A stretch of DNA of 64,000 nucleotides, from contig QPMI01000602.1 of NCBI GenBank assembly GCA_004431415.1, positions 186,001 through 250,000 on the forward strand. The letters run 5' to 3'. The DNA is from Cyanophora paradoxa CCMP329 (Eukaryota; Plantae; Glaucophyta). The notes under the pieces are model-generated. The model did no database searches, was not told the origin of the DNA, and was given only the letters and a program-made list of their open reading frames with translations. A program made the position numbers and the translations under genes. This document shows positions 150-58,656 of this stretch, one piece after another; the first letter of the stretch is position 1; every line of letters starts with the position of its first letter.

Positions 150-361
150 CTCGTAATCGTAATCAAAAGACGTCCGACCTAAGCTCAGTCATCCAACCCC
201 TAATCGTAATCGTAACTCAGTAATTCAAAGACGCCCAACCCCCCATGATCAGGGCCTTATCGTAATATTAATTCAAAGACGTCCGACCTAACTTAGTAAG
301 CTCAGCCACATGGTCAGCCAACCCCTAATTATATAATCGTAATCGTAACTCAGTAATTCAA
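150..361. repeat. Short degenerate repeat cluster
   Basis: TAATCGTAATCGTAACTCAGTAATTCAA at 201-228 and 334-361; AAAGACGTCCGACCTAA twice; a related motif recurs at ~10335-10375. Confidence 0.7.
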
Positions 362-5806: not shown

Positions 5807-6329
5807 ACAAAAAATCTCTCGCCGCGGTGCGCGCTGGAACTGACTAGTTCTGCGAGACGAGAAGAGAGATATTAAGGCACTGAATGGCCGGCGCAAGGGC
5901 ATCTACAGAGCAGACCTAACCGAGGTCGACGAAACGGGTGCCCCAAGAAATCGGCTTCGCAGCACATTGCGCGAGCTGTGCTGAACGGTGCAAACATCTG
6001 AATCTGCTCCCGGAACGCAGCGGGAGGCCGCCGTGCCGGCGGGCGCCGGCGCAGGTGCCAAGAACGCCATGGGCTCCGGAGCAACGCGCCGGATGGCGTC
6101 GGAAGAACGGCCGCTACAAAGGCGCTTCGATCCCGTGCGATACTGCAGCGGCCGCGCCGCGGCCTTTCCGATCGAGCGTTATCGTACCCCCAAGAACGAA
6201 AAGGCAGCGCACGCGCCGCGCGCGGTGCCGGTCTTGTCGCTTTCTATTGTCGCTGCGCGCGGTGGTCGCTTTCTAGCGGCCACCGGAAGGGTCGGCGGGC
6301 CTCGGTTGCAGGTTCTCGCGTGTTCTGAT

Positions 6330-39900: not shown

Positions 39901-40023
39901 GGGGCGCATGCACAGGCGGTGGTGGAGGCGGCCCCGCGGGGCTCCCTCGCCCTCGCCGGGCGCCTCTCCGTCGGCGTCGGCTCCGCCCTCTTCACCTCCT
40001 TCCCCGCCCGCGACGCCCTCTGA
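36958..40023 (+). CDS. Multi-pass membrane protein (possibly DUF2157-like N-terminus), multi-exon
   Basis: MDKLRAQKVLRWTREGKIS followed by several hydrophobic exons such as FILIVFQIHLLFVFGFSYSLISAGIAA. Gene model weak. Confidence 0.45.
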
Positions 40024-40661
40024 CCCCCGCGCCACCGGCCCCCCGCCCCCCCGCCCGCCGGCCCGGCTCGCGGATCGAGGCTTGGCGATTACATCATTCA
40101 CACTGAGTCAAAACAAAGCCGCGGCCGATGGCCGTCACTGTGCTGATGTAGCCTCCCGGGGAGCTCGAGTACTAGTCCTAGTCCGGGGCAGGCTCAGCGG
40201 CTCGGCCCTATATAATTTAATGATTTAGCAGGCCCATGGCCAGTGGCCATGGCCATGGAAGCCTGATTATTTAATTAGTGATCATGATCTGGTTTCTAGA
40301 GTTCAATCATTAAATCATGATCAAGTTCAAGTTTCTGGGCCCTGCAGCTGCGCATGCCCGCTGTAGGGCCTGCCGTAGTACCGTAGTACCCCGGGCTCCC
40401 GGAGTCCGGGATCCGATTATAATTAATATTGGAACTGAGAGATCGGATGATCTTAAACCGCATGATCCGCATCAATACCGGAGCCCTGCCTCGGAGCTCC
40501 ATGCCATTTTTTAAGCCTTTTTTTGAAGTTAGGGTAATCGGTAATCGAGCTCACTCAGTGACTGTCAACTTGGCAACAACTACATATTGGACACATATTC
40601 ACTGCGGTGCTGGTACACTATGCCTATCACTGAGTCACTTCGCTCACTGCACTGCTGTGCT

Positions 40662-40948
40662 TCACACATAGTAAAATGCGGAGTTTTAACCCTCGGCTTA
40701 TCTTAATTGATTTTGTTGATATATCTCGTATATTCTATTTCAATCAATCGATAATCTGTGTATATCTTATCGAATATTCAATTATTTCGATTATTTTGTA
40801 TTCTTTTCGATATTTTATCGTAAATCTCTCTTATTTTCCGATTAGTCTTACTGAGTCTATCGATAATCTGTATATATTTCCGAATAATATAACTGAATCT
40901 CAATTAGATCTTGCCTCTGGTTAAAACTCCGCATTTTACTATGTGTGA
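40662..40948. repeat. 287-bp unit bounded by perfect 30-bp inverted repeats at the host/virus junction
   Basis: TCACACATAGTAAAATGCGGAGTTTTAACC (40662-40691) and its exact reverse complement (40919-40948). Confidence 0.9.
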
Positions 40949-41200
40949 TTGGTCTAAAAGTTAATTGATTTAATCGATATTATATTCATGTACTTTCTCG
41001 ATTAAATTTAATTAAATTTAATTCATTTAATCGGAAATATATCGCTAAACTCGATTAAGATCCATAAAAGATTCATTTGTTTAATAAAACAAATCGATCT
41101 CTTATTGAATTCAATCGTAATTATACATGAAACTTATATGATTTGATCATTGTTTTATTGAGTCTAAGGGGGGACCCTTAGGAATTTAATGAATAATTGG

Positions 41201-41290
41201 GTGTCACAGGTGTCACAGGTCCATCCATCGAAAGGGAAAATCACTCTTTATAGGGCTTGAGCTGGGATAAACCTGTGACACCTGTGACAC
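41201..41290. repeat. Inverted iteron cassette, copy 1
   Basis: GTGTCACAGGTGTCACAGGT, 50-bp spacer, ACCTGTGACACCTGTGACAC: a perfect 20-bp inverted repeat built from tandem 9-mers. Confidence 0.85.
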
Positions 41291-42329
41291 ATACCATATT
41301 CAGTAAGGACCTCATATATTGTTAAAATCTCAGTGTTAGTTGGTGTAGTTGATTCAAAAAATGCATTTATACTCTGATTCATTGTTATTTCCTGTGAAAT
41401 TTGAGTCAACTCAACCCACTTAGTCAACCCTTGCATTGAATTCGTAACAAAATCCATATACTATTACTACTTTTACGATTAATATGAGTCAACCTTGAGT
41501 CCACTTAAATATAAATATAATATAATAGGGGGAATGAAGGGGATATGCTACTAAATGCAGTGCTAGATTGATGGGATCATATATGTAATTACGTTTATCA
41601 AAGCAATATAATATAGGTGATTATTCGATATCATAAGTTGATCGAAACGATAAGTATATGGTTATAAATCGCGATTTTTGAGTTATAATCGAATTTAATC
41701 GATTTAATTTTGAATTTCAAAACTCGCTTTAATCGTAATAACGATCTATACACATTGAGATTCGTATATGTGATTGCAAGTTATTGTTATGTAGGATATA
41801 TGTGATTATATTCGACCGTCAGTGCATCGATTTGATAACTTCCTAGTGATCTATATTAAAAACTCACGTTTAATGGATTTTAATCGAATTTAAAATCAAA
41901 ATTCAACATCGGTTTCATTGCGATTTGGAGTCACAGGTATCGAAAATCCTCAATGTGATAGTAGCGCTGTGACCGCCTTAAAATGCTCGATTTTATGACG
42001 TTTGCAGCGCATCGATTTGAGCATGTGGTGTTGAGCTATCGTAGCAAACGTGAATATTGAGTTTCTAGACGGGTACAGCATTAATCTAGAAAAAAACGCG
42101 TTTTTTTTTTACTTTTCAAGTTTCACGGCGAACGAAGTAAAGGTTCCCGGTCGGATTGAACCTCAGCATCTTCAAACGGTTATATCTCATCACCAGATCA
42201 TCAAAACGCAACGTTCTGCATATCGCTGTGAAGCGCTTGATAAGAGCTACAAGACTATGTGTATATCATATGCATATATGTATATCAGTCATACATATAT
42301 TTGGAAAAAACGAGTTTTTGCCTAGCAAA

Positions 42330-43715
42330 CTAGCTAGTTTTGGTCCTTTCTCTTAGTGTTCTTTGAGGTTTAGGGGCTGTATATGACTCCTTAGTAGTCT
42401 GAAAGTCATTATACCATCTCTGGCTATTCACTTCTGAAAGTTTCTGTGTCCCTGCTATAGTGAGCTTTTTGAGTTCCCTATTAACTTTGCCAGCCTTCTC
42501 CTTTCTAGCCTCTATCAAAGGCTTATCTGGGACTTCATTAGCAGCTTCTATGCCTTCTCTCCTTATAGCAGCATCAACCCTGGCTTCCTCCTTGGCTTGC
42601 TCTAAGGCATCCACTGTAGGGGTTTCTAGATATTCAACTGCATTCACAGGCAACAGCTCATGGAAAGCAAACCTGTTTTCTATGATCTCACCAGTGGGAC
42701 TCCTTAGCTTAAACTTAAAGCCTTCCCTACTATCAACAGTGTAAACCATCCTAGACCAATTGTTACCCTGTTTAGCAAAGGGATTTTTCTCAACTTTCAC
42801 TCTAACAAACATGCCAGGCTGCATGGTATCAAGGTAAGCTATTGATTTCTTGAATCTTTCATCTTCTAATCCCACTATATACCTATAATGCTCCTCTGTA
42901 GTTTCGCCTGGCTTCATCTTAGTAGCTGAGTGAACTGTATTATTGTAATTATACTCAATATCACCTAACACATCAAAGAATCTAGCTGTGTTATTAGCTA
43001 TGCAGTAGTTTGTGATCAGTCTCTTAATCTGCTTGTTAAAGGCTTCAATTCGACCTTGGCTTCTATGGTCAGCAGTTCCACTCACTTGGTGTTCTATGAA
43101 TTTACTAGATAAATACTCCTGGAATATTCGATTTTGGAATTCACTCCCAGCATCTGATTGAACTTTTACTATGGGTCTTGCCACTCTCATTTCAAGCTGC
43201 TTAAATGCAGCTAATGTAGTGAGAGCTGATTTATCTCTTATAGGTATGATATACCCAGTTCTCAGTGTTGATTCCATAGCAGTCATAAATGTATCATAGC
43301 CATTGTTTTGTTTCTTATAAGCTGGGAAAAAGAGCAAATCAATCACATAGGTATCAAGGGGTTGCCTTATTGGAACCATGGGATCTCTCTTCCTAGATAT
43401 AGCAGGTGCATTGATCTGAACTACCTCTTGTTTTTTATAGAACTCTTGCAATTGCTTATAGGATTCATCAGGTAACTCAGCCCTCATGGCTTGAAGCCCT
43501 TTATAACCAGTTCTCACATCATAGAATCTCTTGGCAATCTTGCTGGTTTCTTTCACTGCAATTGCAACTGGAATCTCTACTGGGACAAGCTCTTTCATCT
43601 CTGACTTTTTAACAATTCGAGATTCTCCCTTTTCCTCCTTGGGAACTGTGATGGGCAGTAGGTTACCTTGTAGTTGCTCAGTGGTTCTCCTAACTATTCT
43701 TCCAGTTGCTGGCAT
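42330..43715 (-). CDS. Retroviral-type (rve) DDE integrase
   Basis: YVIDLLF (D), VQSDAGSEF (D), QGRIEAFNKQIK (E), YNNTVHSATKMKP; Polinton/mavirus-type. Confidence 0.93.
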   Translation of the reverse strand: MPATGRIVRRTTEQLQGNLLPITVPKEEKGESRIVKKSEMKELVPVEIPVAIAVKETSKIAKRFYDVRTGYKGLQAMRAELPDESYKQLQEFYKKQEVVQINAPAISRKRDPMVPIRQPLDTYVIDLLFFPAYKKQNNGYDTFMTAMESTLRTGYIIPIRDKSALTTLAAFKQLEMRVARPIVKVQSDAGSEFQNRIFQEYLSSKFIEHQVSGTADHRSQGRIEAFNKQIKRLITNYCIANNTARFFDVLGDIEYNYNNTVHSATKMKPGETTEEHYRYIVGLEDERFKKSIAYLDTMQPGMFVRVKVEKNPFAKQGNNWSRMVYTVDSREGFKFKLRSPTGEIIENRFAFHELLPVNAVEYLETPTVDALEQAKEEARVDAAIRREGIEAANEVPDKPLIEARKEKAGKVNRELKKLTIAGTQKLSEVNSQRWYNDFQTTKESYTAPKPQRTLRERTKTS

Positions 43716-43718
43716 CTC

Positions 43719-46700
43719 TTAATTAAAAGGAACAGAATTAATACCATCTGGTAAGATGTATCTCTTTGCATCAAAGCAGTTTAGGGCAACCCTTCTACTT
43801 ACAGTATCTATTATTGTGTGATCTGCCCTTCTCTTCTGCTTTGCAGTCACAGTCTTGCTGATACCTGCAAATAAACACTGCTTAAAATCATTAAATTGGA
43901 GTTCCTCAGTGGAAGTCCCAGAGAGCTTACTTCTCTCAATCTCAGCAGTTCTGAAACTGTAAACTTTTGCTCTCAGACCTACATACTCCAGTATTGCAGA
44001 GCCAGGCATTTCATTTTTGTATTTACCTGGGGTCATTCTGTTAGATCGCCCTAGGTCCAAGGCATAAGATATATTCTCTATATCTTTTTGTAAGGTCTTA
44101 GATTCAATATATAGACAGAAGGAGTCAGTATCATGGAATAGTAACTTTGCTTTTGTCCATTGGGACCTTACAGTATCATAGAAGAACTGGTAATTATGCA
44201 GTTTGGCTGCATCCAAAACATAAGCCCCAATTGCAACAGGCTTATCTGGTTTCACATGCTTTGTGTAAAACTCAAAGGCAACTGCTTTTTCGTTTATGGG
44301 GCTTGTTGATTTCACCAATGGGGAAGCTGCATATTTCATAAATAGTTTCTCACTGTTTGCAATCTTAACCACAGATCTACCTCTACATGATTCAATGCAT
44401 TTCCCATAGATTGAATTATTCATGAGCTTATAGAAATCAGCCTCGAATTTATTCACTGCTTTCCTTCTCATGTCAGTATTCAGCTCAATATAGGGTTTCA
44501 TTACAGGAGCCACAGTAAATGATAGGACCCTGTGAACTTTCTTTAATTTCACCCCTTTGTCCAACAGATATTGCAGAAGAGGCTCAGAAATCACATAGTT
44601 TGCCACAGAACCAAAGGTTGCAGTTAGCTTTGGGGTTTTATCAAGCTCTTCTCCTGAAAGATCTAAAAGGCTCTTTTGATATTGTGATAATTCGGCATAA
44701 TCTATTATTTTCTTGTTAATGATTAGGGGGAAATCACTGTGATCTAGAAACAGCCTAATTGGGTAATCCAGATCAACTTCCAGGAAACTGGATCTGTTAT
44801 CTTGTGGGTTGAATTCGGTCTCCCATCTAAAATCACCAACTGGGATTGGCTGACTCAAACAGTAGCCATACAAGTTGTTAGCATCAAACAGCATAATGTG
44901 GGAGTTTTCACCATCAGCCTCAGCATACCTACAAGGCATTGTTGCAAAGCCACCCCTGATTCCCCTCTCAACAAATTCGTATTGCTCTACATCACTTATA
45001 AGCTCTATTTTTGCCTTGGTGGTCCTTAACATAGAATCCCAAGATAACCCAGGGGCAGATACATAATGAACTGGGTCAAGTCCATATACTGAGTGTGAAA
45101 GCCTTCTAAAAGCCTGGAATTTGTTCATTAACTCATCTACATCAGCAGCCCCAAAGTCCATGAAATTACTTGCATCAATGAACTTGTAAAGACCCCATTG
45201 CAATGAAAGGTATTGATCAAAGTTTTTTGAGAGGATTTCGATTCGTTTTTTATCTCCCAAGCCTGCTATTTTTCTGAAAATGAATGTCCCACAGTCATCC
45301 ATTTGGTCAACAACAACTGCAACTTTGGTTTGCTTTGAGATTCTCCTATGGAGATTGCAGTTTCTGCATGCAGGAGCAATGTAATGACCTGTGTGGTGGT
45401 CATGATCTCTGCATTTAAAGTTTTCCTTGGTGAACCTCTCACTGCAAAGGTAACAGTGTTTGGTAGCTCTGTAAATTGCTTTCTGCTCATCTGTGAGTTC
45501 ATTCATAGGAATATTGGTAAACAGAAAATCGATCAGTTCTCTTGCTTTGGACTCCAAGCATTCAAACAGACCTCCCATTGGATCATGCCCCTCAAATCGA
45601 AAATCTTGAACATCTGCCCCAGTGACTATTCTAATGTTGACTGCTGAGACTTCCCTCTTGGATTTCGATGCATCAATGGGGATGCTTCTATGTGCAATCT
45701 TGCAGTAGACCACAACAGGAAGCCACACAGTTTTCCTGAGGTTTTTCAGTCCAAACTCTATGGTGGTCTCAGGTTTAGGGGTGATTCCCTTTGAGAGTCT
45801 CCAATCAATGCATCTGTTTGAGTCCACATGAGCAGTGAGTTTAGCCTCAGACCTGAATCGAGATAAGCATGTGTCACAGTAGTGTAACTTTTGATCCTTG
45901 GTTTTATCAAGGGCAACTCTTAGAAGTCTTGAGAGTGACATAATAGTAATATAGTGACCATTCCCTTCATCATCATGAATGAGCATGAGATTAATCTTTT
46001 GCTTTCTGCCTGGGTTGCTGGATTGATGCAGTGGATATATAACATCTCCATCCATTCCAAAGATGTTTATGCTAATGCCTGCATTTTGAGCTTCGAATTT
46101 ATCAATGATTTCAGCATCACAAGGAACAGGGAATGGGATATTGTCGAAATTGAGAGCCAAAGGATTGTATGTGGTTGGTGAGTATTTCCATTTGCGATAT
46201 TGTGTAAGCTCACTTCTCTTGTGGGAATTTACATCTTTCCTATGGATCCATGCCAAAATGGCATTTTCAAAGCAAGAATCATCAATATTTCGAATATTCA
46301 CTGTGGCTCTCTTGGCTGCAATTGATTCTGGTGTTTTAACATAGCAACCACCAGTTGGGGCATAACTCATAATAGCTACTCTGAGCATTTCGATTCTCTC
46401 AAGTCGATAGCTATCAACCACATTCATCTGCTCCTGACACATTTGGGCTGCTTTATTCAGCTCAGTTCGAATATTTCTCGATTTAGTTAATACAAAATAA
46501 TCGCTGTAAACGTATTTCGATATCCAAACCTGTGGATTGCTGACTTTAACGAACTTGCAGATAAACGACAAGCGAACTTTGATTGCCCTGAATTGATCCA
46601 GACTATCCCTTAAACGTTTTGGTAGAGAGGTTGCAATTCTATCTAAATATTCAATCACATCTACCACAACTTCCCTTCTGGCTCTGTATGTGAGCCAGCG

Positions 46701-46964
46701 ATATAATTCATTCATGGCTGTGCCATCTTCTGCCTCTGGTTCTATTTGCCTCAGGCGATCGAGTTCATCAAGAGTCTCAACTTTGTCATAGAGGTTATTG
46801 GCTTTTCTGGTTAATTTGGACAAAGTGGGTCTCCCCCTTGAAATAAATCCGATTTCGCGGTCATATTCAGCCTCAGTGATTTCATGGGCTGCATACAGTG
46901 TTCCCAGTAATCCCATGAGTTCCCATTTCTTCTCTCTAATGAGTCTGTTGCTAATTCGGGGCAT
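43719..46964 (-). CDS. Protein-primed family B DNA polymerase (Polinton type)
   Basis: Motifs FDANNLYG, KLMNNSIYGK, HDTDSF, EYVGLRAKVYS; C2H2 finger; endonuclease-VII-like CYLC...RDHDHHTG...CRNCN. Confidence 0.95.
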   Translation of the reverse strand: MPRISNRLIREKKWELMGLLGTLYAAHEITEAEYDREIGFISRGRPTLSKLTRKANNLYDKVETLDELDRLRQIEPEAEDGTAMNELYRWLTYRARREVVVDVIEYLDRIATSLPKRLRDSLDQFRAIKVRLSFICKFVKVSNPQVWISKYVYSDYFVLTKSRNIRTELNKAAQMCQEQMNVVDSYRLERIEMLRVAIMSYAPTGGCYVKTPESIAAKRATVNIRNIDDSCFENAILAWIHRKDVNSHKRSELTQYRKWKYSPTTYNPLALNFDNIPFPVPCDAEIIDKFEAQNAGISINIFGMDGDVIYPLHQSSNPGRKQKINLMLIHDDEGNGHYITIMSLSRLLRVALDKTKDQKLHYCDTCLSRFRSEAKLTAHVDSNRCIDWRLSKGITPKPETTIEFGLKNLRKTVWLPVVVYCKIAHRSIPIDASKSKREVSAVNIRIVTGADVQDFRFEGHDPMGGLFECLESKARELIDFLFTNIPMNELTDEQKAIYRATKHCYLCSERFTKENFKCRDHDHHTGHYIAPACRNCNLHRRISKQTKVAVVVDQMDDCGTFIFRKIAGLGDKKRIEILSKNFDQYLSLQWGLYKFIDASNFMDFGAADVDELMNKFQAFRRLSHSVYGLDPVHYVSAPGLSWDSMLRTTKAKIELISDVEQYEFVERGIRGGFATMPCRYAEADGENSHIMLFDANNLYGYCLSQPIPVGDFRWETEFNPQDNRSSFLEVDLDYPIRLFLDHSDFPLIINKKIIDYAELSQYQKSLLDLSGEELDKTPKLTATFGSVANYVISEPLLQYLLDKGVKLKKVHRVLSFTVAPVMKPYIELNTDMRRKAVNKFEADFYKLMNNSIYGKCIESCRGRSVVKIANSEKLFMKYAASPLVKSTSPINEKAVAFEFYTKHVKPDKPVAIGAYVLDAAKLHNYQFFYDTVRSQWTKAKLLFHDTDSFCLYIESKTLQKDIENISYALDLGRSNRMTPGKYKNEMPGSAILEYVGLRAKVYSFRTAEIERSKLSGTSTEELQFNDFKQCLFAGISKTVTAKQKRRADHTIIDTVSRRVALNCFDAKRYILPDGINSVPFN

Positions 46965-47031
46965 TGTTCCTAACTTGTTCCTAATAAAAGGAGAGGTTTT
47001 AAATGGGGTATTCTGAACACAAAATTTGATG

Positions 47032-47070
47032 AAAACTACTTAAAGAAATATCTTCTATATATATAAAAAG
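47032..47070 (+). promoter_or_regulatory. Conserved viral upstream motif (putative promoter)
   Basis: AAAACTACTTAAAGAAATATCTTCTATATATATAAAA, nearly identical to 48323-48360; shorter variants at ~47870 and ~50890, each upstream of an ATG. Confidence 0.7.
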
Positions 47071-47073
47071 ACA

Positions 47074-47856
47074 ATGGCAGAGAAGAGATCTTATTGCCTG
47101 GAAATATTGAAAGCTGAACTTTTGAGAATATGTGGATCTGATAATTTCAATAATTATGTTGCTCTGGGTAGTAACAGAAAGCTGCTCCCCCTTTGGGCAA
47201 AACTTGCCAAGTATGGATTAAGTGACACAGACCTGCCCCCAGAGTCTAAGAATTGCGCTTGCAATCATTATATTCAAGAGCAGTGCTATATTTTGCATGT
47301 GGATAAAAAGATTGTGGTCATAGTTGGCAACTGCTGCATTAAACGATTTATGCCAAAGGGTGCCAGGGGTCAAGATATATGCGAAAAATGTGGAGATCGG
47401 CATAAAAACCGAAAAGATAATTTCTGCAATAAGTGCAGGATTATCAGAAAGCAAGAGGAAGAAGAAAGACAAAAGCAGCTTGAAATAGAGAAAAGAGAGA
47501 CAAGGCAGAGAGAATATGAAGAAGAAAGGGCAAGAAAGAAACATGCAGTGAACCTTTTCCTGATTTGGTGCAACCAGTTTATACCAAAAATGGATAATCT
47601 TCGCAGAGATGATATAGAGAGGTTCAGAGAGGGCAGATCTGCATTGATTGAAATGTATGCAGAACTCAGTACTACAAATACATTGGTTGCTGGGTTTCAG
47701 GTGCCATATCTTAAAAAGGATATTGCAAAAGGACTAGATTGCAGATGGAATAAGGACAAGAAAACATGGGAGACCTTGGAAATCGAACCATTTGTAGCAT
47801 TGCTAGGTAAGCATTTCAAACTTATGTATATTGAGCGATTTGGACAAAGAGGTTAG
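47074..47856 (+). CDS. Viral Cys-rich protein with C-terminal DUF5710-like motif
   Basis: CACNHYIQEQCYI...VGNCC, CEKC...CNKC, a charged coiled coil, then VPYLKKDIAKGLDCRWNKDKKTW. Confidence 0.75.
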   Translation: MAEKRSYCLEILKAELLRICGSDNFNNYVALGSNRKLLPLWAKLAKYGLSDTDLPPESKNCACNHYIQEQCYILHVDKKIVVIVGNCCIKRFMPKGARGQDICEKCGDRHKNRKDNFCNKCRIIRKQEEEERQKQLEIEKRETRQREYEEERARKKHAVNLFLIWCNQFIPKMDNLRRDDIERFREGRSALIEMYAELSTTNTLVAGFQVPYLKKDIAKGLDCRWNKDKKTWETLEIEPFVALLGKHFKLMYIERFGQRG

Positions 47857-47912
47857 AGAACAAAAAATGATTTAAAGAATTCTCTATATATATTAAGAGA
47901 GAAAGAGGAAAA

Positions 47913-48167
47913 ATGCCACTCAGTGAAGCGCAGAAGAGAGCTATGAAAAGATATCAGCAAACTGAAAAAGGTAAGGCTCAAATCAAAAAGTTTAACGAAA
48001 AAATAGCCACACAGCTTAGAGATCTATATAACACTGATGACACCTATAGAGCCATGAAAATAGCAAGTTCATGTCAGCGAAAGTATGCAGCCAATGCAGT
48101 CTGCTTTGTCAAGTATTTGTATGATGTCCCTTACTCAAATCGAGGGAGAAAATCGAAACATGTCTAA
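47913..48167 (+). CDS. Small basic viral protein
   Basis: MPLSEAQKRAMKRYQQTEKGK; preceded by the TTAAAG motif. Confidence 0.65.
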   Translation: MPLSEAQKRAMKRYQQTEKGKAQIKKFNEKIATQLRDLYNTDDTYRAMKIASSCQRKYAANAVCFVKYLYDVPYSNRGRKSKHV

Positions 48168-48322
48168 ATTATTTTTCCCAGCATATTACTAGGCTGGGAT
48201 ATGCTGTTTATTCGCTGAAATACTACTTTATCGTTTTTGTATCTGAACCACTCGATATATGATGTGGATAAATTTCGTAGGGATACTTTCTCGATTTCCA
48301 ACAAAAAATGATTGGGGGACCC

Positions 48323-48360
48323 AAAACTACTTAAAGAAAAATCTTCTATATATATAAAAG
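48323..48360 (+). promoter_or_regulatory. Second near-identical copy of the viral upstream motif, flanked by an inverted repeat
   Basis: ATTGGGGGACCC - motif - GGGACCCCCAAT, directly upstream of the primase-helicase. Confidence 0.7.
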
Positions 48361-48379
48361 GGACCCCCAATCGCTGAAA

Positions 48380-50706
48380 ATGAACGCCAAACAGACCAAG
48401 TTAATTAAATCGCTCGCTAACTGGCTTCGTTCTGATGAGGAACTGTCCAAAAACATGATTATCCCTGTGAAACCTGACAGCAAAGACCCTGTTTTCAAGC
48501 ATAAGGGAGGTGCTTGGTCCTGGGAAAAGTATGAGGAAGCGCTGGCAACTAATCAGTATGTATCTTGGGGCATTCTGCTCTCAGAAAACATGATGGTTAT
48601 TGACTTTGATGATGAGGAGAACTTCGAGAAATTCCGGGATATGTTTCCTGATGACTTTGATGCCAATCAACCCATGGCAAAAACTAAAAAAGGCTATCAT
48701 GTCTACTTTAAACGACCTGAGGAGTTCAATAAACTCAAAATTACCGATACGGCTCCTGGCTTTAAAGGCTTTGAGAAGGTTGACCTGAAAACAATCACTG
48801 GAACTGGAACTTCTGGATTAATTAATGTTTGTCCCAGTGTCAACAAGACCTGGGTAATTGCTCCATGGGATGATACCTGTGATTTCAATGAGCCTACTGA
48901 TGAGTTTAAAAAGTGGATTGCAGAGAACTATATCTATAAGAGTGAGTATACTGCTAGTGCTAGCTCAAATGATGAACTGGAAAAGAGTATTCTTAAAGAG
49001 CTGGTGGATATGGGCTTTATGCATCCCAATATAATCTCTAAAACTGAACTGGGCTTTAACTTTGATGCTGCCAATAAGGGACTCAATTGCCCATGCTGCA
49101 ATGGGTCACATGAATCGAATAACTGGTATGTTATGAAAGCCAAAGGGGAAGATAAAAAGTATATTGTGTCCAGCTACAGTGGCAATTGCAAAAAACGATT
49201 TATCTTCATTGGAATGCAATCTGATATCTTCAATCTCATTGATAAATCCGCTGGCTCTGGAGGCGCTCATTATGATGTCAGTCTTGTGTGCAAAGAGGTC
49301 CTACAACACACTTGGAGATACTCCAAAAAGTCATGGTTCAAACTCAATACTGATACTGGGATTTGGGAGCATGATGACACAAACCAAAAGATTTACCTAG
49401 ATATTAGTTGCCTTGTTGTCCCTCAATACCTTGGCAGGGCTGTGCATTATAGCCAAAGAGCTTTGAAGGATGAAGAGAATAGAACAGCTTTCGAAGAGAA
49501 ATCGAAAACATTAATTTCTATTGCCAAAAATCTTAAACAATCAGGATATCGCAAATCCCTTCTGACTGATCTGCTCCCTCTGCTGAATGATGATGAGTTC
49601 TATGAAAAGATTGATACAGTTCCATATGTAATTGGATTCGATAATGGTGTATTTGATCTGACAACTATGACTTTCAGAAAGGGTAAACTGGAAGATATGG
49701 TGAGCAAGAGTGTGGGTTATGATTTTACTGAGAATGTAGACCCCAAGAAAGTGGAGCATCTCAATCAGATTTATAGAGAGATTGTAGATGATCCAGCAGA
49801 GCGAAACTATCTTCTGGCATCTATTGCAATTGCTTTGAGTGGATCAACAAAATCACAGAAGTTCTATATGTGGACTGGTGCTGGTGCTAATGGTAAATCA
49901 CTTGTTCAGGAATACTGCAAACAGATATCTGGGGCTTATTACAGCCCTCTCGAAATATCCTATTGGACCAAACCTAAGAAGAACTCATCAGATGCTACCC
50001 CTGAACTTGCCAAACTCCTGGGAAAGCGACTTGTATTCAGTAATGAGGCTGAAGATGGTGATAAACTGCAAATTTCCAAAATTAAGGAGGTCACAGGTGG
50101 AAATGAAATGACTGTGAGAGCCTTGTTCAAAGACCCAGTAATCCTCACTCCAATGTTCCAGGTTTACATTACAACTAATGACAATTTGACTATAAATAAA
50201 CCAGACTTTGCAATTCAAAGAAGGCTTTCATACCAGAGATTCAATAATATATTCAGAGAGAAGCCTGAAGCTGGTCAAAAGAAAGCTGACCCAACTCTGT
50301 TCACACTTCTTCACAATGATGATGAGTATAAGATGGCTCACATGAAGATATTACTGGATATGTGGAAGAACAAAGAAGTTGAAGAGATCTTAAGAAATCC
50401 CCTCAATCGATTATTGAGCAGGGAATAAACTTTATAGCTGAAAATGACAAGATTGGTGAATGGCTTAGGGATAATTTCGAAGTTACCCATAATGCAAACG
50501 ACTTTGTTTCGAGTGATACCATTTACAAATCATACAGAAGTGTCGATGATAAAGTTGAATGTGTTTCTGTGATGAAGAGAGTAAGGGAAATCTTCAATGT
50601 GAAATCAGAGGTTAAACGAATTCAGGGAACCAGAGCAAGGGGCTACATTGGACTTCGAAAGATAACAAGGGTTCAAGAAGACAATGGAGAGGATGTTGAA
50701 TATTAA
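48380..50706 (+). CDS. Prim-Pol primase fused to D5-like SF3 helicase; frameshift at ~50400
   Basis: Prim-Pol motifs VIDFD and KTKKGYHVYF; CPCC...H; D5_N IGFDNGVFDL; Walker A GAGANGKS. The C-terminus continues in the -1 frame (PQSIIEQGINFIAENDKIGEWL...RGYIGLR...*) to 50706. Confidence 0.9.
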
Positions 50707-50766
50707 ACAAAACGATTTATGATTGAAATGTATATGTAATTTTTATAGCCTTACTGGAAATGGTGT

Positions 50767-50859
50767 TGTTCACAGGTGTCACAGGTCCATCCCATCTAGG
50801 GGGCTATAAAACGAAAAATGACCAGGGGACGATAAAAACCTGTGAACACCTGTGACACC
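50767..50859. repeat. Inverted iteron cassette, copy 2 (candidate replication origin)
   Basis: TGTTCACAGGTGTCACAGGT, 51-bp spacer, ACCTGTGAACACCTGTGACACC; 60 bp downstream of the helicase stop. Confidence 0.85.
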
Positions 50860-50926
50860 TATCGAAAAAGACCAAAATTTGACAAGAATACTTAAAGCTT
50901 ACTTGATTGTGTATAGTGAAGACAAA

Positions 50927-51148
50927 ATGGCAAAGACTCTTGATGAGATGACCATGACTGAGTTAGATAAATGCATAAAGCATGGAGATATAGGGGCATA
51001 TATCGAAATGTCACAGAGATTGATAGGTTACAATATGTATGCAGCTAAACCAAAGAGAAATAGATCAGTAAACATTCACATTACTGTTTCAGTATCTGAG
51101 AATGTAAACAAAAAACTACAAAAGCAAATTTACAAAGCTTATCTGTGA
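50927..51148 (+). CDS. Small hypothetical viral protein
   Basis: ATG (MAKTLDEM) lies 35 nt after TTAAAG; the track's GTG start falls inside the iteron. Confidence 0.5.
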   Translation: MAKTLDEMTMTELDKCIKHGDIGAYIEMSQRLIGYNMYAAKPKRNRSVNIHITVSVSENVNKKLQKQIYKAYL

Positions 51149-51241
51149 CTTGCAATTGATTGCAAGTATAAAGCCAATTCCTTTGTATATATTTTTATAG
51201 CTGCCTCAGTGGCATACTGAGACCGCTTTTTCTCGATTATC

Positions 51242-51487
51242 TTATAGACCTGGGGGTCCATTGCTACTATCAGTAGGCAAATAATATTTAATCGGTCTCC
51301 CTCTGGGTCTCTGCTCCTCTTTTTGGGCTTTTCTGCGATAATAGGATGCCAGGGCTTGCTGCTTTTTATACTCTCTATATGCTGGGTCCTCTCTATATCG
51401 TTTCTGCATTGCTAGTATGTGTCTGATAGAACCCTCAGTAACAGGTTCATCACTGGTAAACTCGATTAAACTAATAGTGTCCTCCAT
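51242..51487 (-). CDS. Small basic viral protein
   Basis: RYREDPAYREYKKQQALASYYRRK...RPRGRP (AT-hook-like); overlaps its neighbour. Confidence 0.6.
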   Translation of the reverse strand: MEDTISLIEFTSDEPVTEGSIRHILAMQKRYREDPAYREYKKQQALASYYRRKAQKEEQRPRGRPIKYYLPTDSSNGPPGL

Positions 51488-51743
51488 TTATATTCCCAGA
51501 GAAAACGTTTTCTGCTGGCAGAGAACTTCTCCTTGGATACTCCTGTTGCTCATATGTATACTCTGTGGGGTCTGCTGGCATTGACTCCACTGAAGCTGTT
51601 GACCTCCTTCTTTCTCTTGCCTCAGATACATTATCCTCAGTATCTGACATCTCAAACTCTATTGTTGTGTCACAGCATCCACTGTGGCAATTGCTTACCA
51701 CATGCAGACTGAGCATCTCAATAAACTTTCGTATTATATCCAT
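51471..51743 (-). CDS. Small hypothetical viral protein
   Basis: ATG-started ORF packed in the minus-strand gene run; contains SNCHSGCC. Confidence 0.55.
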   Translation of the reverse strand: MDIIRKFIEMLSLHVVSNCHSGCCDTTIEFEMSDTEDNVSEARERRRSTASVESMPADPTEYTYEQQEYPRRSSLPAENVFSGNINGGHY

Positions 51744-51765
51744 GTCTCTAATAAAACAGAGAAAA

Positions 51766-52500
51766 TTAAAGCCAAACTCGTCTTTTATATACTGTGGGAG
51801 CTACTCCCTTTTCTACTTCAGCTTTAGTGGCACCAGGTTCAATGGTTCCCTTTTGGGTCTTTGTTTTCATTTCATCTACTGCTTGCTCATCGATTTGGGT
51901 CTCTTTCTTAGCAATAAACTGTTTATCTGGGACACCAGTAATGCCCATTTTATAAACTTCCTTTCGAAGCATCTCCTTTAGCTTAGCCCTCTCTTTCTTC
52001 TCAGTAACATACTGCTCCAAGGCACTGGATTTGGCTTCCAAGTCTTTGAGTTTAGCAGTCATCTCATCCCATTGAGCTTTGGGAATTCGATGAATATTTT
52101 GAGTGGGAGCAGTCTTATATGTGACTTCACCAGCCATAGACTGAATTACCTTGTCTGATTCCTTACTAAGACCTTCACCTTTGCGAGCCAGTGAAAGATC
52201 TTGCAAGCCTAGACCTTTATCATCAGCAGCACCAATAATTCGCCTGGCACCCTCAGCAACAGCTTTCATTTTTGAGGCTTCTGGTGAGATGTTGAGTTGG
52301 TCACTGGTTGAAGCCTGTGGGGCTTTGTCATCGACTGATTCCTCATAGGCAGCATTAAGAGGGTCTTCTTCTTGTTGTGAGGGCTTCACCTCATTCATAC
52401 CATTGAACTTCAGTGGTTCAGTGTTAATGGATCCATTGTTTCCACCACCTGAATAGCCAACAGCCCCAGCTGGGATCCCTATTTTTCGTTTGGGAGGCAT
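51766..52500 (-). CDS. Hypothetical viral protein with coiled coil (possible core/structural protein)
   Basis: 244-aa ORF starting MPPKRK, next to the packaging ATPase. Confidence 0.7.
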   Translation of the reverse strand: MPPKRKIGIPAGAVGYSGGGNNGSINTEPLKFNGMNEVKPSQQEEDPLNAAYEESVDDKAPQASTSDQLNISPEASKMKAVAEGARRIIGAADDKGLGLQDLSLARKGEGLSKESDKVIQSMAGEVTYKTAPTQNIHRIPKAQWDEMTAKLKDLEAKSSALEQYVTEKKERAKLKEMLRKEVYKMGITGVPDKQFIAKKETQIDEQAVDEMKTKTQKGTIEPGATKAEVEKGVAPTVYKRRVWL

Positions 52501-52528
52501 TGTATCTTTATTAGAATGAGAGATAATT

Positions 52529-53311
52529 TTATAAACCGCGTTTATATCTCATCAATTTATTGCTATGGATTTGGCTTTTCACTTCTTTAGGGGCTTCCTC
52601 TTTCTCTGGTGGTTTCAGTTCATCTTCTTTCTTTTTTGGCTTTCTGTGGAAGCGAGGAAATGGGAAATCTTTCACAAGCTCAGCTTTATCTACATAGTAT
52701 TTAACTGAGTAGTTTGCAGAGGACCAAATAATATACTGATAGGAGTGAACATACTCTTCAAACATCTTGTAAAAATCCTCTTTATTTCGCATTATATTGT
52801 ATTCTTCCTCTATGGCTTCCAGTTCTTTGCGATTTGCAGCACTTAAAAACATAGCATAGTCCGAATTAACTCGAATTGTTGAAGAAACCTTACGCAGTTT
52901 CTGAGTTATGCAAAAAATGCTTATTTGGGAATGGCGCCCACGCGAATACAGAGATCCTATTATTTTATCCCTGGTCAAATCGACTATTTCATTATCGATT
53001 AAATCATCTAAAACCACACATAACTGATTAACAGGTTCTCCCTTTTCTATTTTCTCTTGCCTCTCATCTAGCAATTTAGCAATGTAAGGGGCATCCCATT
53101 TTCCCAGTTGCAGTGTTGCCACTTTATCCCAGAAATGATTGAAGCTGGTTCCACTCACAACTAATACAACATCAATCTTTTTGGCATCATGCAGTTGCTT
53201 CAACCAATACTTTACAGCTTCTGATTTACCAGTGGCAGACTTGCCAATTGCTAATACACGAAATGGTGGTTCTATCATTTCACCAGCCACAAATTCATCC
53301 AAATCATTCAT
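52529..53311 (-). CDS. A32/FtsK-like genome packaging ATPase
   Basis: Walker A GKSATGKS, Walker B LCVVLDD, RGRHSQISIFCITQ, IRVNSDY. Confidence 0.93.
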   Translation of the reverse strand: MNDLDEFVAGEMIEPPFRVLAIGKSATGKSEAVKYWLKQLHDAKKIDVVLVVSGTSFNHFWDKVATLQLGKWDAPYIAKLLDERQEKIEKGEPVNQLCVVLDDLIDNEIVDLTRDKIIGSLYSRGRHSQISIFCITQKLRKVSSTIRVNSDYAMFLSAANRKELEAIEEEYNIMRNKEDFYKMFEEYVHSYQYIIWSSANYSVKYYVDKAELVKDFPFPRFHRKPKKKEDELKPPEKEEAPKEVKSQIHSNKLMRYKRGL

Positions 53312-53376
53312 TGTTGTATATCTTTCTAAATAAATACAGATAAAAATAATGCAGAGAGACTGAATATCGTAACAAT

Positions 53377-54747
53377 CTATAAATTAATTCTTCGGAGACC
53401 ATCCTTGTCCAAAATTATATAGCTATGCATGAGAGCGCGAACATTGACATCGATTACCTTATCTGAAGGCATGTAGAGGGTGAGGAAGGAAGAAGAGGAA
53501 TTTGTTAAATCGACATAACCAGACTGGGCAATATTTCGAATTGCCTTCTCTCCATCAATGCAGAAACTTAAACCTGAAAGGACATAGCGATCAGCAACCT
53601 TATCCATGTTAGAGCATTTGAAGGCATCAGCAATTAGCTCAGCACCTTTGAGTAGGGAAATTGGCTCAGTGGCATAAAGTCGCTGTCCATTAATTTCAAC
53701 AGTGAAAGTAATATCTTTGGAGTTGGCATAGGTCTTAAGAACACTGTGGGAGCCAGTGGATTTATCAACAGTTGCATTATCACGAACTGAAACAAGCAGA
53801 GCATAAACAAGACCTGAGATTTGAGAGAGGTTAATTCGATTGGGTTGGGCATTGCCCTTGGCAGGGAAAGCACTAGCATCTACAAATCCAATATCAAGGG
53901 AGGGAATAGCCATGCCAGTAGTCTTTACTTTTTCAATTACAGTAGCGAAAAGCTCATCAGAAACATTAATAGCATGCATGTAAAGGCGAGGAGAAGTAAT
54001 AGAAATGACAGGGGTTGTTGCACCAAGAGTAAAGTCTGTGATGTTTTGACCAACATTTGCCAGAACAGTTTCAGCAGGGGCAGTTCCAAGACCATCATCT
54101 TTTGAATAATCTACATCAGCTGCTGCAACAGTAAGACCACGACCACCATAGGAAGTTTCAACATAACCCTTTCCAGCATCCTTAAACCAAACAGTAACAA
54201 CCATTTCACCAGATAAAGCACCAAGGGGAAGGTAGTGATTTAGCCAAGGCACAGGGATTTCAACAAAGAATGAGCCACCAAGGCGGTTGGTTCCATGAGC
54301 AGGGATGCCATGAACCATGCCCATTGATTGCTTCTTTTTAGCTAGTTGATCCTCCGAATAATAGACCAGGGGGAAATGAGCAAGGAAATCAGAGGGAATG
54401 TGGTAGGTGTAAGATCCATAGGTAATTTCGAGTCGCTGAACTAAAGCACCAACTGGGCGAGTGTATCCATTGCGAACTAGGTCAGTATCACCAGCAAATG
54501 TGATGGCTGGAAGGTCGAAAGCAAGTTCGAGTTTTCCACAGAAATTGTAGCGAGGTAGCTTGAAGGAAATGCGATTTCCAACATTATTCTCAAAAGTATT
54601 GCTGGGATTCACAACAACTAGAACTGGCTTAGACTTGGATTCGAGACCAAGCATTAGGGAGTTATCCAGGAAAAAGGCTTTCGCCTCCTCTGGGGTTGTT
54701 AGGGCTTCTTTCAGCGAAAGTCTTTGAAGAGTGGAAGTGATATCCAT
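53377..54747 (-). CDS. Major capsid protein, probable double jelly-roll
   Basis: ~456-aa beta-rich ORF between the ATPase and minor capsid genes; GNRISFKLPR...LELAFDLP...LVQRLEITYG and ITFTVEINGQ resemble DJR strands. Likely start MDITST. Confidence 0.8.
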   Translation of the reverse strand: MDITSTLQRLSLKEALTTPEEAKAFFLDNSLMLGLESKSKPVLVVVNPSNTFENNVGNRISFKLPRYNFCGKLELAFDLPAITFAGDTDLVRNGYTRPVGALVQRLEITYGSYTYHIPSDFLAHFPLVYYSEDQLAKKKQSMGMVHGIPAHGTNRLGGSFFVEIPVPWLNHYLPLGALSGEMVVTVWFKDAGKGYVETSYGGRGLTVAAADVDYSKDDGLGTAPAETVLANVGQNITDFTLGATTPVISITSPRLYMHAINVSDELFATVIEKVKTTGMAIPSLDIGFVDASAFPAKGNAQPNRINLSQISGLVYALLVSVRDNATVDKSTGSHSVLKTYANSKDITFTVEINGQRLYATEPISLLKGAELIADAFKCSNMDKVADRYVLSGLSFCIDGEKAIRNIAQSGYVDLTNSSSSFLTLYMPSDKVIDVNVRALMHSYIILDKDGLRRINL

Positions 54748-54800
54748 TATATTCTCTTTTATTATACTGCAACATAAAAAATCTACCAATGATCCTTAAT

Positions 54801-55832
54801 TTATGCGAAGCTTGTAATAACTGGATAGGAAGGGTGAAGCTGCGACATTCTCATCTTAAAGTATTCATAAACTGGGTCTCCTGCTGGCTCATCACCATAG
54901 CGAATTTCAAAGGTCAGATGAACAGGTTGACCCTCAAAATCAATTGGTTCATTTACAGCATTAACAATATCAACCGAGAAAGTGGATAATCCAACCTTCT
55001 TATTATAATATTTGTAAAGTGGGTGAGCTTCTGTTGAATTGTAAACAACATGCTCACCATAGTCTTTATCAGGGACCACTATTTTGTGAAAGTAACCAGT
55101 CAGAAGACCATCCCCACATTGAACCAGATCACCCAGCTCCTTTACTCTCACAAACAAAACACTGTCCCTGGTCTTCTCAGGCTCAAAAGAAGATATAATG
55201 CCATTCACTCGACCATCAGTAAAGATTCCATCAGTGAGAGCATCATAAACTTGGGATTTGATTGGGGAATTCCCATATCTTCCAGGATCAAGACCAAGCA
55301 GTCTAGCTGAACTCAATAGCTTTTGGATTGTTTGTTGGCTTGGGTTTACAGCAAGTGAGAAAGCCAGGTAAAAAGGCACTGCCGACTGGAATATAATTCG
55401 TTTCAGTGACTCATCCCATTTGCAGCGAATGGATGGTTGGGGAGTTCTGCCAATGAATTTTGAGTTGATTACATTCACCAGCTGTTGGTGGCTTTGGATG
55501 GGGGTCTCGCGATTTACCATGAATTGTTTCCATTGTTCAAAATCAGCAGCTGGGCGAGTTGTTGGAATTCCTGAGCTTCCAGCTCCTGGAGTTTGTTCAG
55601 AATAATAAATACTAAATGTGTTATCAACTGTTACATCTCCTGCTTTGGTTTCACCACTCACCATAGGGATGCTGTTATAAAATTCGGCTGAGACCAGTCT
55701 CACAGCCCTCACATTCTCATAAGTACTGGGGAGTCTAGCCACAAAGCTTGAAGTGGGACCATCACCAGAGATTGTATTAAATGAGCTAACCTCGATGTAA
55801 TCCACAGGCATTCTTCTTTTATCTATATTCAT
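54801..55832 (-). CDS. Minor capsid (penton-like single jelly-roll) protein 1
   Basis: SFVARLPSTYENVRAVRLVSAEFYNS ... LFVRVKEL ... LSTFSVDIVNAVNEPIDFEGQPVHLTFEI. Confidence 0.8.
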   Translation of the reverse strand: MNIDKRRMPVDYIEVSSFNTISGDGPTSSFVARLPSTYENVRAVRLVSAEFYNSIPMVSGETKAGDVTVDNTFSIYYSEQTPGAGSSGIPTTRPAADFEQWKQFMVNRETPIQSHQQLVNVINSKFIGRTPQPSIRCKWDESLKRIIFQSAVPFYLAFSLAVNPSQQTIQKLLSSARLLGLDPGRYGNSPIKSQVYDALTDGIFTDGRVNGIISSFEPEKTRDSVLFVRVKELGDLVQCGDGLLTGYFHKIVVPDKDYGEHVVYNSTEAHPLYKYYNKKVGLSTFSVDIVNAVNEPIDFEGQPVHLTFEIRYGDEPAGDPVYEYFKMRMSQLHPSYPVITSFA

Positions 55833-55840
55833 ATATTAAA

Positions 55841-56773
55841 ATGAACCGGCTCGTTAATATTGATAGCAGGGATAGAAGCCAAGGACAAAATGAAAACTCT
55901 TACAGGGTCACCCTCACAACTCCAGTAGAGAGACCAAGGGAATGCAGGGTTCTATATGCAGAGATTCCAAACAGCATCTATAACAGTGTTGGAACTGATC
56001 ATCTAACAGTTCAGTTTAATTACCAAGATGGTTCATATAACCAAGTGATCACACAACAAGTGTATCCCCTTCCCAGTGGCTACATCAATCAGGGTCATTT
56101 TGGGGTAACACACCCTTATAATTACGGGCTGAACTATTCAAGCTTCCAAACAATTGCAGGCAAAACAGTAGCTTTTGAGTTCAAGATATTCTATAACCCA
56201 ACTACCTATAAAGTGGAGTTTTACAGTAACCATGAGTTTCGTTTTATTGCAAGCAACCAGAGAATAGGGAAGCTTTTGGGTGTAAGCTCTACTGAATATA
56301 CCAATGGGTATTATAGCACTCCTCCTGTTGGTGGATCTCCCTATCGACCTGAGAACCTTTTAAAGTATGATGGCAAACCTATTACACCTGATCACCCAGC
56401 ATGGGGAATCACCTTCTCAGGACCCAGACTCTCCTCTAAGCCCTTGCAATATTATTTTGACAGCAGGAAGATGTCTGATATGAATGCTGAGCAGTATCTG
56501 TACATGCATATTAAAGAGCTGTCCCCCTTTGCCAGCAGACACAATATAATTCCAAAATCGCAACCACAAAACCAGGGAGCTATCCTTAGATTGCAATTGA
56601 GTAAGGATATAGGGGGCTATGTTTACCATAGTGGTGAGCATGCAGAATTTATTCAAATCAATGACAGAAACCTGGTGATAAGGGAACTCACAGTTGAGTT
56701 TAAAGATTACTTTGGTGAACTGATTGATATGAATGGAATCGATAATTCGTTTCAGTTGGAGTTTATCGAATAA
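55841..56773 (+). CDS. Minor capsid (penton-like single jelly-roll) protein 2
   Basis: VNIDSRDR ... AEIPNSIYN ... YLYMHIKEL ... LTVEFKDYFGELIDMNGIDNSFQLEF. Confidence 0.85.
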   Translation: MNRLVNIDSRDRSQGQNENSYRVTLTTPVERPRECRVLYAEIPNSIYNSVGTDHLTVQFNYQDGSYNQVITQQVYPLPSGYINQGHFGVTHPYNYGLNYSSFQTIAGKTVAFEFKIFYNPTTYKVEFYSNHEFRFIASNQRIGKLLGVSSTEYTNGYYSTPPVGGSPYRPENLLKYDGKPITPDHPAWGITFSGPRLSSKPLQYYFDSRKMSDMNAEQYLYMHIKELSPFASRHNIIPKSQPQNQGAILRLQLSKDIGGYVYHSGEHAEFIQINDRNLVIRELTVEFKDYFGELIDMNGIDNSFQLEFIE

Positions 56774-58097
56774 AGGCACCTGTAAAGTCCACTCTCATTG
56801 TGGGAGCATTCACATACACAAGGGGATAAATGCGAATATATTTAATTCTGAGAGAAAAACCTATGTAAAAAGCATCCTTGATGCTGAGAGGGAATCCACT
56901 CAATAAAGCCACATCACCTGAGTTGTGAGCATTGTTAATGTTCTCACAGACATACATTTTGTTTTGCCCATCTGATCGAATAAAAGACCAGTTGATCCCA
57001 TCAGTGGATGTTGCCACATTGAAAGTCTTAATAAAAGCATTGGTGTCACCTGAGCCATAGGCAATCACAGAGGAGAGTTCAAAAGTGTATGGGAAAGCAA
57101 CTTGAAGGTATTCAGTGGGGGTTTCCCATATCTGCTCAGGAGCATAGGCTCCAGCTTCCCAGCCAAATGCTGAAGGTCTAGCCATGAAAGGCTCTTTACC
57201 AGTCACAGAGGATGAGGCAGTGAAGGCATCATCTGCAAGCTGATACCAATTAGCATCCAAAGGTGGTGATGTAGTGAGAGTGGATGAGATGTAAGCCTTT
57301 GTAGGGTTCTTTAATTCATAGTTTGCTACTAGAATGCTGCAAAGCTTATTAATCATATCATTGTTTGCTGCTATGTATGTTTCTGTGAAAGAAAGCATAT
57401 CTGGGATTTTAGAAGTGTCATCCAGGGAGCTTACTATGTGATTCGGAAGAGGGACTGATAGCCTATAGTATCTCCCATAATCCTGATCATAGTTGTAGGG
57501 TAACAACTCCTCCATTTTATCAAGGGCAGAAAGCTCACTTGCAGCCATGAGCATGTTAATCAATGGGCTTCCATCTGTTGAGGCAATCCATGAGAGAATG
57601 CCCCAGCTGTTCACAGTCTCATAAGCATAACCCACATAGTCAGACTCTAAATGTGGGTCCACCTCTCCACAAGAGATGCTTATTACTATAATATCATCAT
57701 CATCACTGTAAATCTTCTTTGCATGGCTGTAACCACACACACTGGGATTATTGTTTCCCGAAATGGCACCATCAATGAGACAGACATATACTCCCCGATT
57801 GAAATCAACAATGCTTACAGGAGAGAAATATGTAGGAGCAGCAGAAGTAGCCCTAGCAGCAATCTTACAAGGCATAAAGTTGTAATTGTTATCATTTGTG
57901 ATAAATATTGGTTTCATATTCTGAGTATCAAAGGATGTAATCACAATGTCCTTTAGGGAATCTTGTATTAGTGATTCACCAGTAACTGAATTGATTGCAG
58001 TCTCCAAGGGTCCCACATCATACTTTGTATTAAAAAGGGCATTTTCGATTATATTTCGAGGATTTGCGAAAATCAAGGGCAGTTGAGTTAGGTAAAT
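56763..58097 (-). pseudogene. Patatin-like phospholipase fused to F5/8 type C (discoidin) domain; 5' part displaced by the insertion
   Basis: ATSAAPTYF and IDGA patatin motifs; discoidin EYLQV...STDGINW...YIRIYP...MRVDF. No ATG, DGGG or GxSxG motif before the sequence turns GC-rich. Confidence 0.85.
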
Positions 58098-58656
58098 TGT
58101 TGCCGATAGGGTTTCCTAGCCGTTAGTGCTTCGTTTGCACTTCGTTCGCAGTAGTACCGTGACTTGACCCGCGGCTTCTCGCGATTTCCTGAGTCACTGT
58201 ACCCCTGTACGAAGATGCGACCCTAGCTACTTTTTCTGACTCTAGCTTGATACTTTCCGGTAGCCGTGTCCTAGGGTACACAGTAGTCTGTGATTAGCAG
58301 CTTTCTCTTGCAACGTGACAGCCTGCTCGCCTGCTGCTGGTACGCTACGGGAAGGTTGCTAAGGTCTACTGGGACGTATAAAACCTCCTAAAACATCCTC
58401 GCCGGGACCAGCGCACGCCAGCTGACGGACTTGCTGCGCACGTCCGTTGGCCGCGAGCGTGAACCCGCTGGACTACGAGGAGGCGAACGCTTGACGCTTT
58501 CGGAGAGCACCGCTACTGGCGGACGCACTCCGCTGACCCGCCTCGCCGCCGACGCTTCCCTTCTCGAAGCTTCGGACGCGCCTCCGCCGCTCACTCGCGC
58601 AGTTGGGGAGCAGCCCGCCGTACCGCGGCATCGGCTAGCTCCCTGGCTCATCGTTC

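Follow-up and report, generated by a model that had tools for sequence, protein, structure and literature searches.

The DNA analysed here (the window) is a stretch of 64,000 nucleotides from Cyanophora paradoxa CCMP329, contig QPMI01000602.1, and the subject is an AT-rich island at 40662-58097 that an earlier note, made from the sequence alone, had taken for a near-intact endogenous Polinton-like virus (PLV). GC content is 0.39 in the island compared with 0.61 in the left and 0.65 in the right flank, and 85% of the island is coding. Motif and profile searches bear out the AT-rich island from 40662 with its rve integrase, its pPolB with EndoVII insert, its A32 ATPase and its Prim-Pol/D5 helicase, and profile scans matched no maturation-protease family in the visible part of the element, the right end of which lies outside view (Table 1). 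The visible element is at least 17.4 kb long, within the ~14-40 kb size range of PLVs in the wide sense, and holds both the double-jelly-roll major capsid protein (MCP) and the A32-like ATPase by which such viruses are recognised, together with the pPolB and rve integrase pair of Polintoviricetes. No HUH or VLTF family was matched in Pfam, six open reading frames (ORFs) being without assignment.

Table 1. Features of the element and its right-hand neighbour, in window coordinates
Feature	Position	Strand	Evidence or remark
Left terminus and internal inverted repeat	40662..40948		perfect 30-bp arms, 40662-40691 and 40919-40948
Palindrome of doubled TGTCACAGG repeats	41201..41290		repeat analysis
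rve integrase, 461 aa	42330..43715	-	DDE triad intact (D126, D188, E224); PF00665 E 2.6e-4, IS481 E 3.7e-12
Polinton-type pPolB, 1081 aa	43719..46964	-	vOTU Cys231/His337 and Pol A/B/C intact; EndoVII insert; exonuclease motifs lost, ~94-aa deletion
ORF260, Cys-rich N-part, weak DUF5710; belongs to variable module	47074..47856	+	profile search; lower depth
ORF84, no convincing family match	47913..48167	+	profile search
Prim-Pol (AEP)-D5/SF3 primase-helicase	48380..50706	+	profile search
Second TGTCACAGG palindrome, directly 3' of helicase gene	50770..50860		repeat analysis
Four ORFs, no convincing family match: 73 aa (+), then 81, 90 and 244 aa (-)	50927..52500		profile search
A32-like packaging ATPase	52529..53311	-	Walker A/B and RGRH motif intact; PF04665 E 4e-10
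Major capsid protein, 456 aa, double jelly-roll	53377..54747	-	predicted fold
Probable minor capsid protein 1, 343 aa	54801..55832	-	Atlas lead
Probable minor capsid protein 2, 310 aa	55841..56773	+	DUF5901 E 0.012
Patatin-like phospholipase fused to F5/8-C discoidin, N-terminal part cut by LTR element	56763..58097	-	profile search
LTR-like repeat, 298 bp, TG...CA, of nested GC-rich multi-copy retroelement running past window end	58098..58395	+	contig breaks, depth step

The most interesting feature, missed by the earlier note, is the dead exonuclease of the polymerase, which is the real parallel with mavirus. Among the best 120 of 2470 matches, the closest relative of the window pPolB is P0010 (49% identical, 46-51% across comparisons), and the top relatives are Polinton-type polymerases with 33-39% identity over the other 119, two being named coral proteins. 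In the window protein and P0010 alike, the Asp and Glu of Exo I, the Asn and Asp of Exo II and the Tyr and Asp of Exo III are missing, and the stretch from anchor to anchor spans 34 residues compared with at least 122 (median 128) in the other 119 relatives. These hold the Exo I Asp/Glu in 99 of the 99 sequences covering the site, the Exo II Asp in 119 of 119 and the Exo III Asp in 118 of 119. Both exonuclease-less proteins have an intact vOTU Cys and His and keep the residues of Pol A, B and C. A quick tree of 62 rows, which has neither mavirus nor another outgroup and cannot prove independent loss, joins the two as one long-branched pair (SH-aLRT 100). As they share the loss and pair in the tree, the loss is a trait of the lineage and not decay of the window copy.

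Two independent exonuclease losses have been named, one in mavirus with its separate SF3 helicase and one in the pPolB-SF1 helicase fusions; in both the exonuclease domain is already mostly gone, and compensation by the helicase has been proposed (10.1101/2024.03.18.585575). The exonuclease motifs are conserved over ~22,000 integrase-linked Polinton pPolBs (10.1101/2023.08.22.554363). Our literature search, which included the accessible parts of PMC13215967 and PMC12721341, found no report of an exonuclease-less Polinton-type pPolB, and this variant seems to be unreported. After mavirus and the pPolB-SF1 fusions, the lineage is a candidate for a third case in which proofreading was lost independently next to a helicase gene, its Polinton-type sequence and retained exonuclease remnant suggesting independence from the mavirus loss; a pPolB without proofreading likely relies on the neighbouring helicase instead. 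With Polintons/Mavericks the element shares the pPolB with vOTU and EndoVII, rve, the double-jelly-roll capsid and the A32 ATPase, but its exonuclease is dead, no protease is seen in the visible part and an AEP-SF3 helicase has been added. With the Tlr1-like pPolB-SF1 helicase fusions of PLVs and transpovirons it shares the loss of the exonuclease and the gain of a helicase, whereas in the window element a separate gene encodes the helicase, of the SF3 class, and the exonuclease is only partly deleted.

With a probability of roughly 85%, we read 40662-58097 as a real Polinton-like virus integrated in a chromosome of what is likely Cyanophora; its family numbers about a hundred copies or more, and this one is likely disabled by a long terminal repeat (LTR) element in its lipase gene. 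At least half of the sampled words were present in 19 of the 24 listed runs, all of one organism, one of which may be the window's own source, and read contigs from four runs (X1, X2, X4 and X20) were compared with the window. The left junction, placed by the earlier note at ~40662, is found in contigs of two of these four, covering 40015-40691 in X2 (depth 95) and 39898-40691 in X4 (depth 30), with 0 differences and at single-copy depth. The depth of one pPolB contig over that of single-copy contigs, a rough measure of copy number, gives 85-110 copies in X1, 98-103 in X2 and 95-144 in X4. As this ratio is stable over three runs from different years, chromosomal copies are favoured over episomes, and the data suggest about 100 chromosomal copies of the family. 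No single read contig covers the whole stretch, as would be the case if a free or episomal virus had been joined to host DNA in a chimeric assembly; given that the left junction occurs in two independent runs, that the depth ratio holds between them and that the right boundary falls exactly at the TG end of the LTR, we consider such a chimera most improbable.

Besides the roughness of the depth measure, several observations weigh against the integrated-copy reading. The junction contigs enter the element by 30 bases only, one below the threshold for bridging, and there is no junction contig in X1 and none in X20. Neither the right end nor a pair of terminal repeats nor a target-site duplication was seen, and the left end has no partner within the window. 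The helicase module at 46.8-51.4 kb (ORF260, ORF84, helicase and ORF73) has a binned depth 3-5 times below that of the core, and fold support is absent for both proteins assigned as pentons. The likely host is named from viral relatives and not from a host gene. The right end and the target-site duplication are hidden because the LTR element from 58098 cuts the lipase, and the read contigs over the left end revealed neither a terminal-repeat boundary nor the flanks of other copies.

The description of the element as near-intact does not survive, since the LTR element splits the lipase gene and the copy is likely broken by this insertion. The lipase itself is present, but as a patatin-discoidin fusion that has lost its first ~65 profile positions to the LTR element; the patatin frame is open to 58097 and its profile match starts only at position 68 of 317. 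Read contigs break at 58366 and depth over 58098-58395 exceeds that of the sequence behind, in keeping with an LTR that belongs to a retroelement with many copies. Directly after this LTR there is no standard TGG primer-binding site, and a family-profile scan found no reverse-transcriptase domain in the scanned part of the window. The ORFs in the GC-rich LTR-like element at 58098-64000, of 783 and 990 aa, find no convincing match in Pfam; the element also has 36-bp tandem repeats (60767-60988), and its depth is roughly 10-13 times single-copy. Other family copies extend beyond 58097 with sequence differing from the window. On the left, the first base common to copies is 40662-40664, the high-depth read contigs beginning at 40664. 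An inverted copy of the terminal 30 bp lies 227 bp inward, so that the left end could fold as a ~285-nt hairpin, and the inner arm is kept in a variant subfamily (an X4 read contig).

Forty differences between copies are listed, with 1028 more beyond the list; 34 of the 40 lie inside ORFs, 14 of them in ORF260. Synonymous changes make up 24 of the 34, and with ORF260 left out 16 of 20 core-gene differences, compared with 22% expected (p 4e-8). Mostly synonymous differences over many copies indicate that the family diverged under selection and expanded recently. The earlier claim of a recent integration thus stands for the activity of the family and not for the window copy, which is undatable. 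In X20, which carries a second organism label and is RNA only by guess, patchy pieces of the element occur at 86-99% identity and low depth; the family may extend to a related species.

The lower depth over 46.8-51.4 kb points to a variable or more divergent module, and not every copy with the window's pPolB has the window's helicase. The domains and catalytic motifs of the primase-helicase are present, but the reading frame shifts near 50398, probably through an assembly error, and contigs with one extra base near this position account for the entire compared depth in X2 and X4 and for 2774 of 3668 in X1. A 37-bp direct repeat (36/37 identical) with TCTATATATAT stands upstream of ORF260 and of the helicase, at 47032-47068 and 48323-48359, and the TCTATATATAT core motif is present upstream of ORF84 too, the repeats lying close to start codons; this repeat is likely a shared promoter of the variable module, to judge from its placement. 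The integrase, pPolB and helicase genes are bracketed by the TGTCACAGG palindromes, putative replication origins; TGTTCAC in the second of them resembles the origin repeat of phage P4, to which the P4 primase-helicase binds.

Elements with two replicases and repeats bracketing the replication module, one of them from Cyanophora, have been reported (10.64898/2026.10.13.758929), and the window element shares this repeat-bracketed arrangement through its TGTCACAGG palindromes. Such an arrangement, the presence of two replicase classes in one element and the long branch of the pPolB would also fit an exonuclease-dead pPolB that is a decaying passenger, the element being replicated by its AEP-SF3 primase-helicase, or spreading mainly as a transposon in which integrase and pPolB are a captured transpoviron-like module. 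We consider a passenger polymerase unlikely, because two proteins of only 46-51% identity both keep the Pol A/B/C and vOTU residues, three of the four listed pPolB differences are synonymous and the depth of integrase and pPolB is above that of the helicase.

The ~456-aa protein that the earlier note had named a probable capsid adopts a double-jelly-roll fold when modelled (AlphaFold2, 7-sequence alignment, pLDDT 67, pTM 0.73). Foldseek ranks the PBCV-1 and SGIV (iridovirus) capsids best (E ~1e-18; Sputnik 4e-13), and VIA-align gives Z 28.8 for PBCV-1 (rmsd 3.4, 349 aligned) and 27.7 for faustovirus, compared with 16.4 for Sputnik and 15.9 for mavirus. On this predicted fold, the 456-aa capsid has a double jelly-roll that differs from the virophage type. 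Its sequence is isolated, with 6 matches among 1.84 billion representatives. The best of them and closest named relative, P0001 (58% identical), is a Cyanophora paradoxa protein, and three distant relatives come from ENA assemblies (21-23% identity). The distant relatives P0003, P0005/P0008 and P0006, at 21-23% identity, lie on assembled contigs of 3-15 kb and are possibly free-living kin of the lineage. No Pfam family matches the capsid or its distant relatives, and PDB sequence searches with the MCP profile, the pPolB and the ATPase gave no real match. Scans of IMG/VR and JGI contigs with the MCP pair, P0006 and the distant MCP alignment returned no related loci, these scans needing exact short motifs and being no proof of absence. 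For the A32 ATPase, only one homolog was found.

All top fold matches are capsids of nucleocytoplasmic large DNA viruses (NCLDVs), the Atlas neighbours are labelled Nucleocytoviricota, and none of the named PLV groups in PMC10120064 holds the MCP clusters of the family, which are placed there outside the Maverick-Polinton clusters. The element could on these grounds belong to Nucleocytoviricota-related small viruses of the Zoravirus/VC218 kind, which often have rve, rather than to ordinary PLVs. However, most Polinton and PLV MCP models themselves look like NCLDV capsids (PMC10120064) and no PLV capsid is among the listed matches, so that the fold test does not discriminate and we rejected the NCLDV-like fold as evidence of placement. 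With no HUH or VLTF family matched either, we hold this affiliation to be rather doubtful and retain that of a PLV in the wide sense.

Of the two intact pentons described earlier, the PLV/NCLDV-like leads remain, and these are weak. The 343-aa protein scores 0.97-0.98 in the Atlas to viral clusters with DUF5901 in 13% of their members, recognition being below threshold; the 310-aa protein has a weak DUF5901 match (E 0.012) and an AlphaFold2 model that is unusable (pLDDT 35). Pairwise BLAST of the two candidates against each other gave nothing significant. Both are probable minor capsid proteins on this sequence-level evidence.

Mavirus carries a lipase, and an endogenous virophage of its type could be read from the rve, exonuclease-deficient pPolB, separate SF3 helicase and lipase of the element. 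TCTA is the mavirus promoter motif; a mavirus-like TCTA promoter was rejected here, as 5 of 13 genes have it compared with 2.9 after shuffling (p 0.14). The likeness to mavirus in rve, in an exonuclease-deficient pPolB and in a stand-alone SF3 helicase is real (10.1101/2024.03.18.585575), but the pPolB is long, full-length and of Polinton type with exonuclease remnant and EndoVII, the AEP is fused to the helicase and the lipase is of patatin type. The capsid fold is far nearer to PBCV-1 than to mavirus or Sputnik, and set against the virophage type of MCP as defined in PMC9952930, the 456-aa protein differs by fold (Z 15.9-16.4 to virophages, 27.7-28.8 to faustovirus and PBCV-1). No protease family was matched in the visible part, and 0 of 156 elements of the family have one (PMC12220804). 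We therefore give a mavirus-like virophage almost no credence, and agree with the earlier note on a Polinton-like virus with PLV/NCLDV-like capsid, Polinton-type pPolB and mosaic modules.

The family has been counted before. In PMC10120064 (Tables S2 and S4), 366 MCP hits in two unnamed clusters make up 7.3% of the Cyanophora paradoxa genome, and P0001 and a closer 465-aa relative are listed in Table S2 as confirmed MCPs with HHpred support; by eye, 44 of the first 50 residues of the latter match those of the window capsid. Table S6 of PMC12220804 lists 156 glaucophyte elements, with A32 in 139, rve in 85, pPolB (PF03175) in 49, D5 in 40, SF1 helicase in 34, lipases in 89, and proteases and tyrosine recombinases in 0; only 2 of the 156 were recognised by Polinton/PLV MCP models. 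The text of that paper describes nested retrotransposons and names a fusion of discoidin and patatin among the PLVs of glaucophytes. These endogenous PLVs of Cyanophora paradoxa share MCP family, gene set, patatin-discoidin fusion and nested retrotransposons with the window element, and in the accessible parts of PMC10120064 and PMC12220804 they are counted but not named, placed or analysed, and the exonuclease loss is not mentioned. Neither 'glauco' nor 'paradoxa' occurs in the main text of PMC10120064, nor does Cyanophora occur in the accessible part of a 2026 framework preprint (10.64898/2026.06.19.733378). Our literature search found no paper devoted to, naming or placing the family, which preprint supplements may place. 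The gene combination, which had been thought unusual and possibly undescribed, is therefore not new, being catalogued in these tables, and of the undescribed lineage there remains one that appears to be unnamed and unplaced.

The left flank of the element holds fragmented eukaryotic genes for PEP carboxylase, PCNA, a THOC3-like WD40 protein and a kinase. Over window positions 1-13000, with the fragmented PEP carboxylase gene, host GC is near 0.5, rising to 0.65-0.78 further right. At 40200-40660 GC falls to 0.38-0.56, below its surroundings, with many short palindromes at single-copy depth; this is possibly an older mobile-element remnant.

The gene set suggests how intact members of the family would propagate. 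Integration of the linear genome into host DNA would be the work of the rve integrase, whose DDE triad is intact. At the termini, a putative N-terminal terminal-protein region of the pPolB, released by the vOTU protease, whose Cys and His are intact, likely serves for priming, and the pPolB would polymerise without 3'-5' proofreading, given the loss of the Exo I, II and III residues. Unwinding may be supplied by the neighbouring Prim-Pol/SF3 helicase, with the TGTCACAGG palindromes as putative origins. For the virion, the A32 ATPase would fill a double-jelly-roll capsid with DNA; this capsid would have two pentons and form without a maturation protease. The patatin-discoidin protein may serve attachment and membrane entry, as proposed in PMC12220804.

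As an endogenous PLV alone, the element would be ordinary. A wider interpretation, which we offer tentatively and at somewhat less than even odds, is that glaucophytes have a deep lineage of small double-jelly-roll viruses to themselves, as yet unplaced, which has recently been active at hundreds of copies. Its Polinton-type polymerase would be halfway through losing the exonuclease, independently and for the third time, while swappable helicase modules (SF3 in the window, SF1 in other copies) take over. Several percent of the host genome may consist of this family, which profile-based surveys miss because its capsid is nearly without relatives in protein databases. As its full-length Polinton-type pPolB keeps an exonuclease remnant next to a helicase gene, the proposed trade of exonuclease for helicase becomes testable, by biochemistry and by comparison of the many copies that one genome holds. 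If the wider interpretation is true, the lineage would mark a natural intermediate stage on the way from Polintons to replicases of the mavirus-like and pPolB-helicase types, and a culturable alga would allow each copy to be tested.

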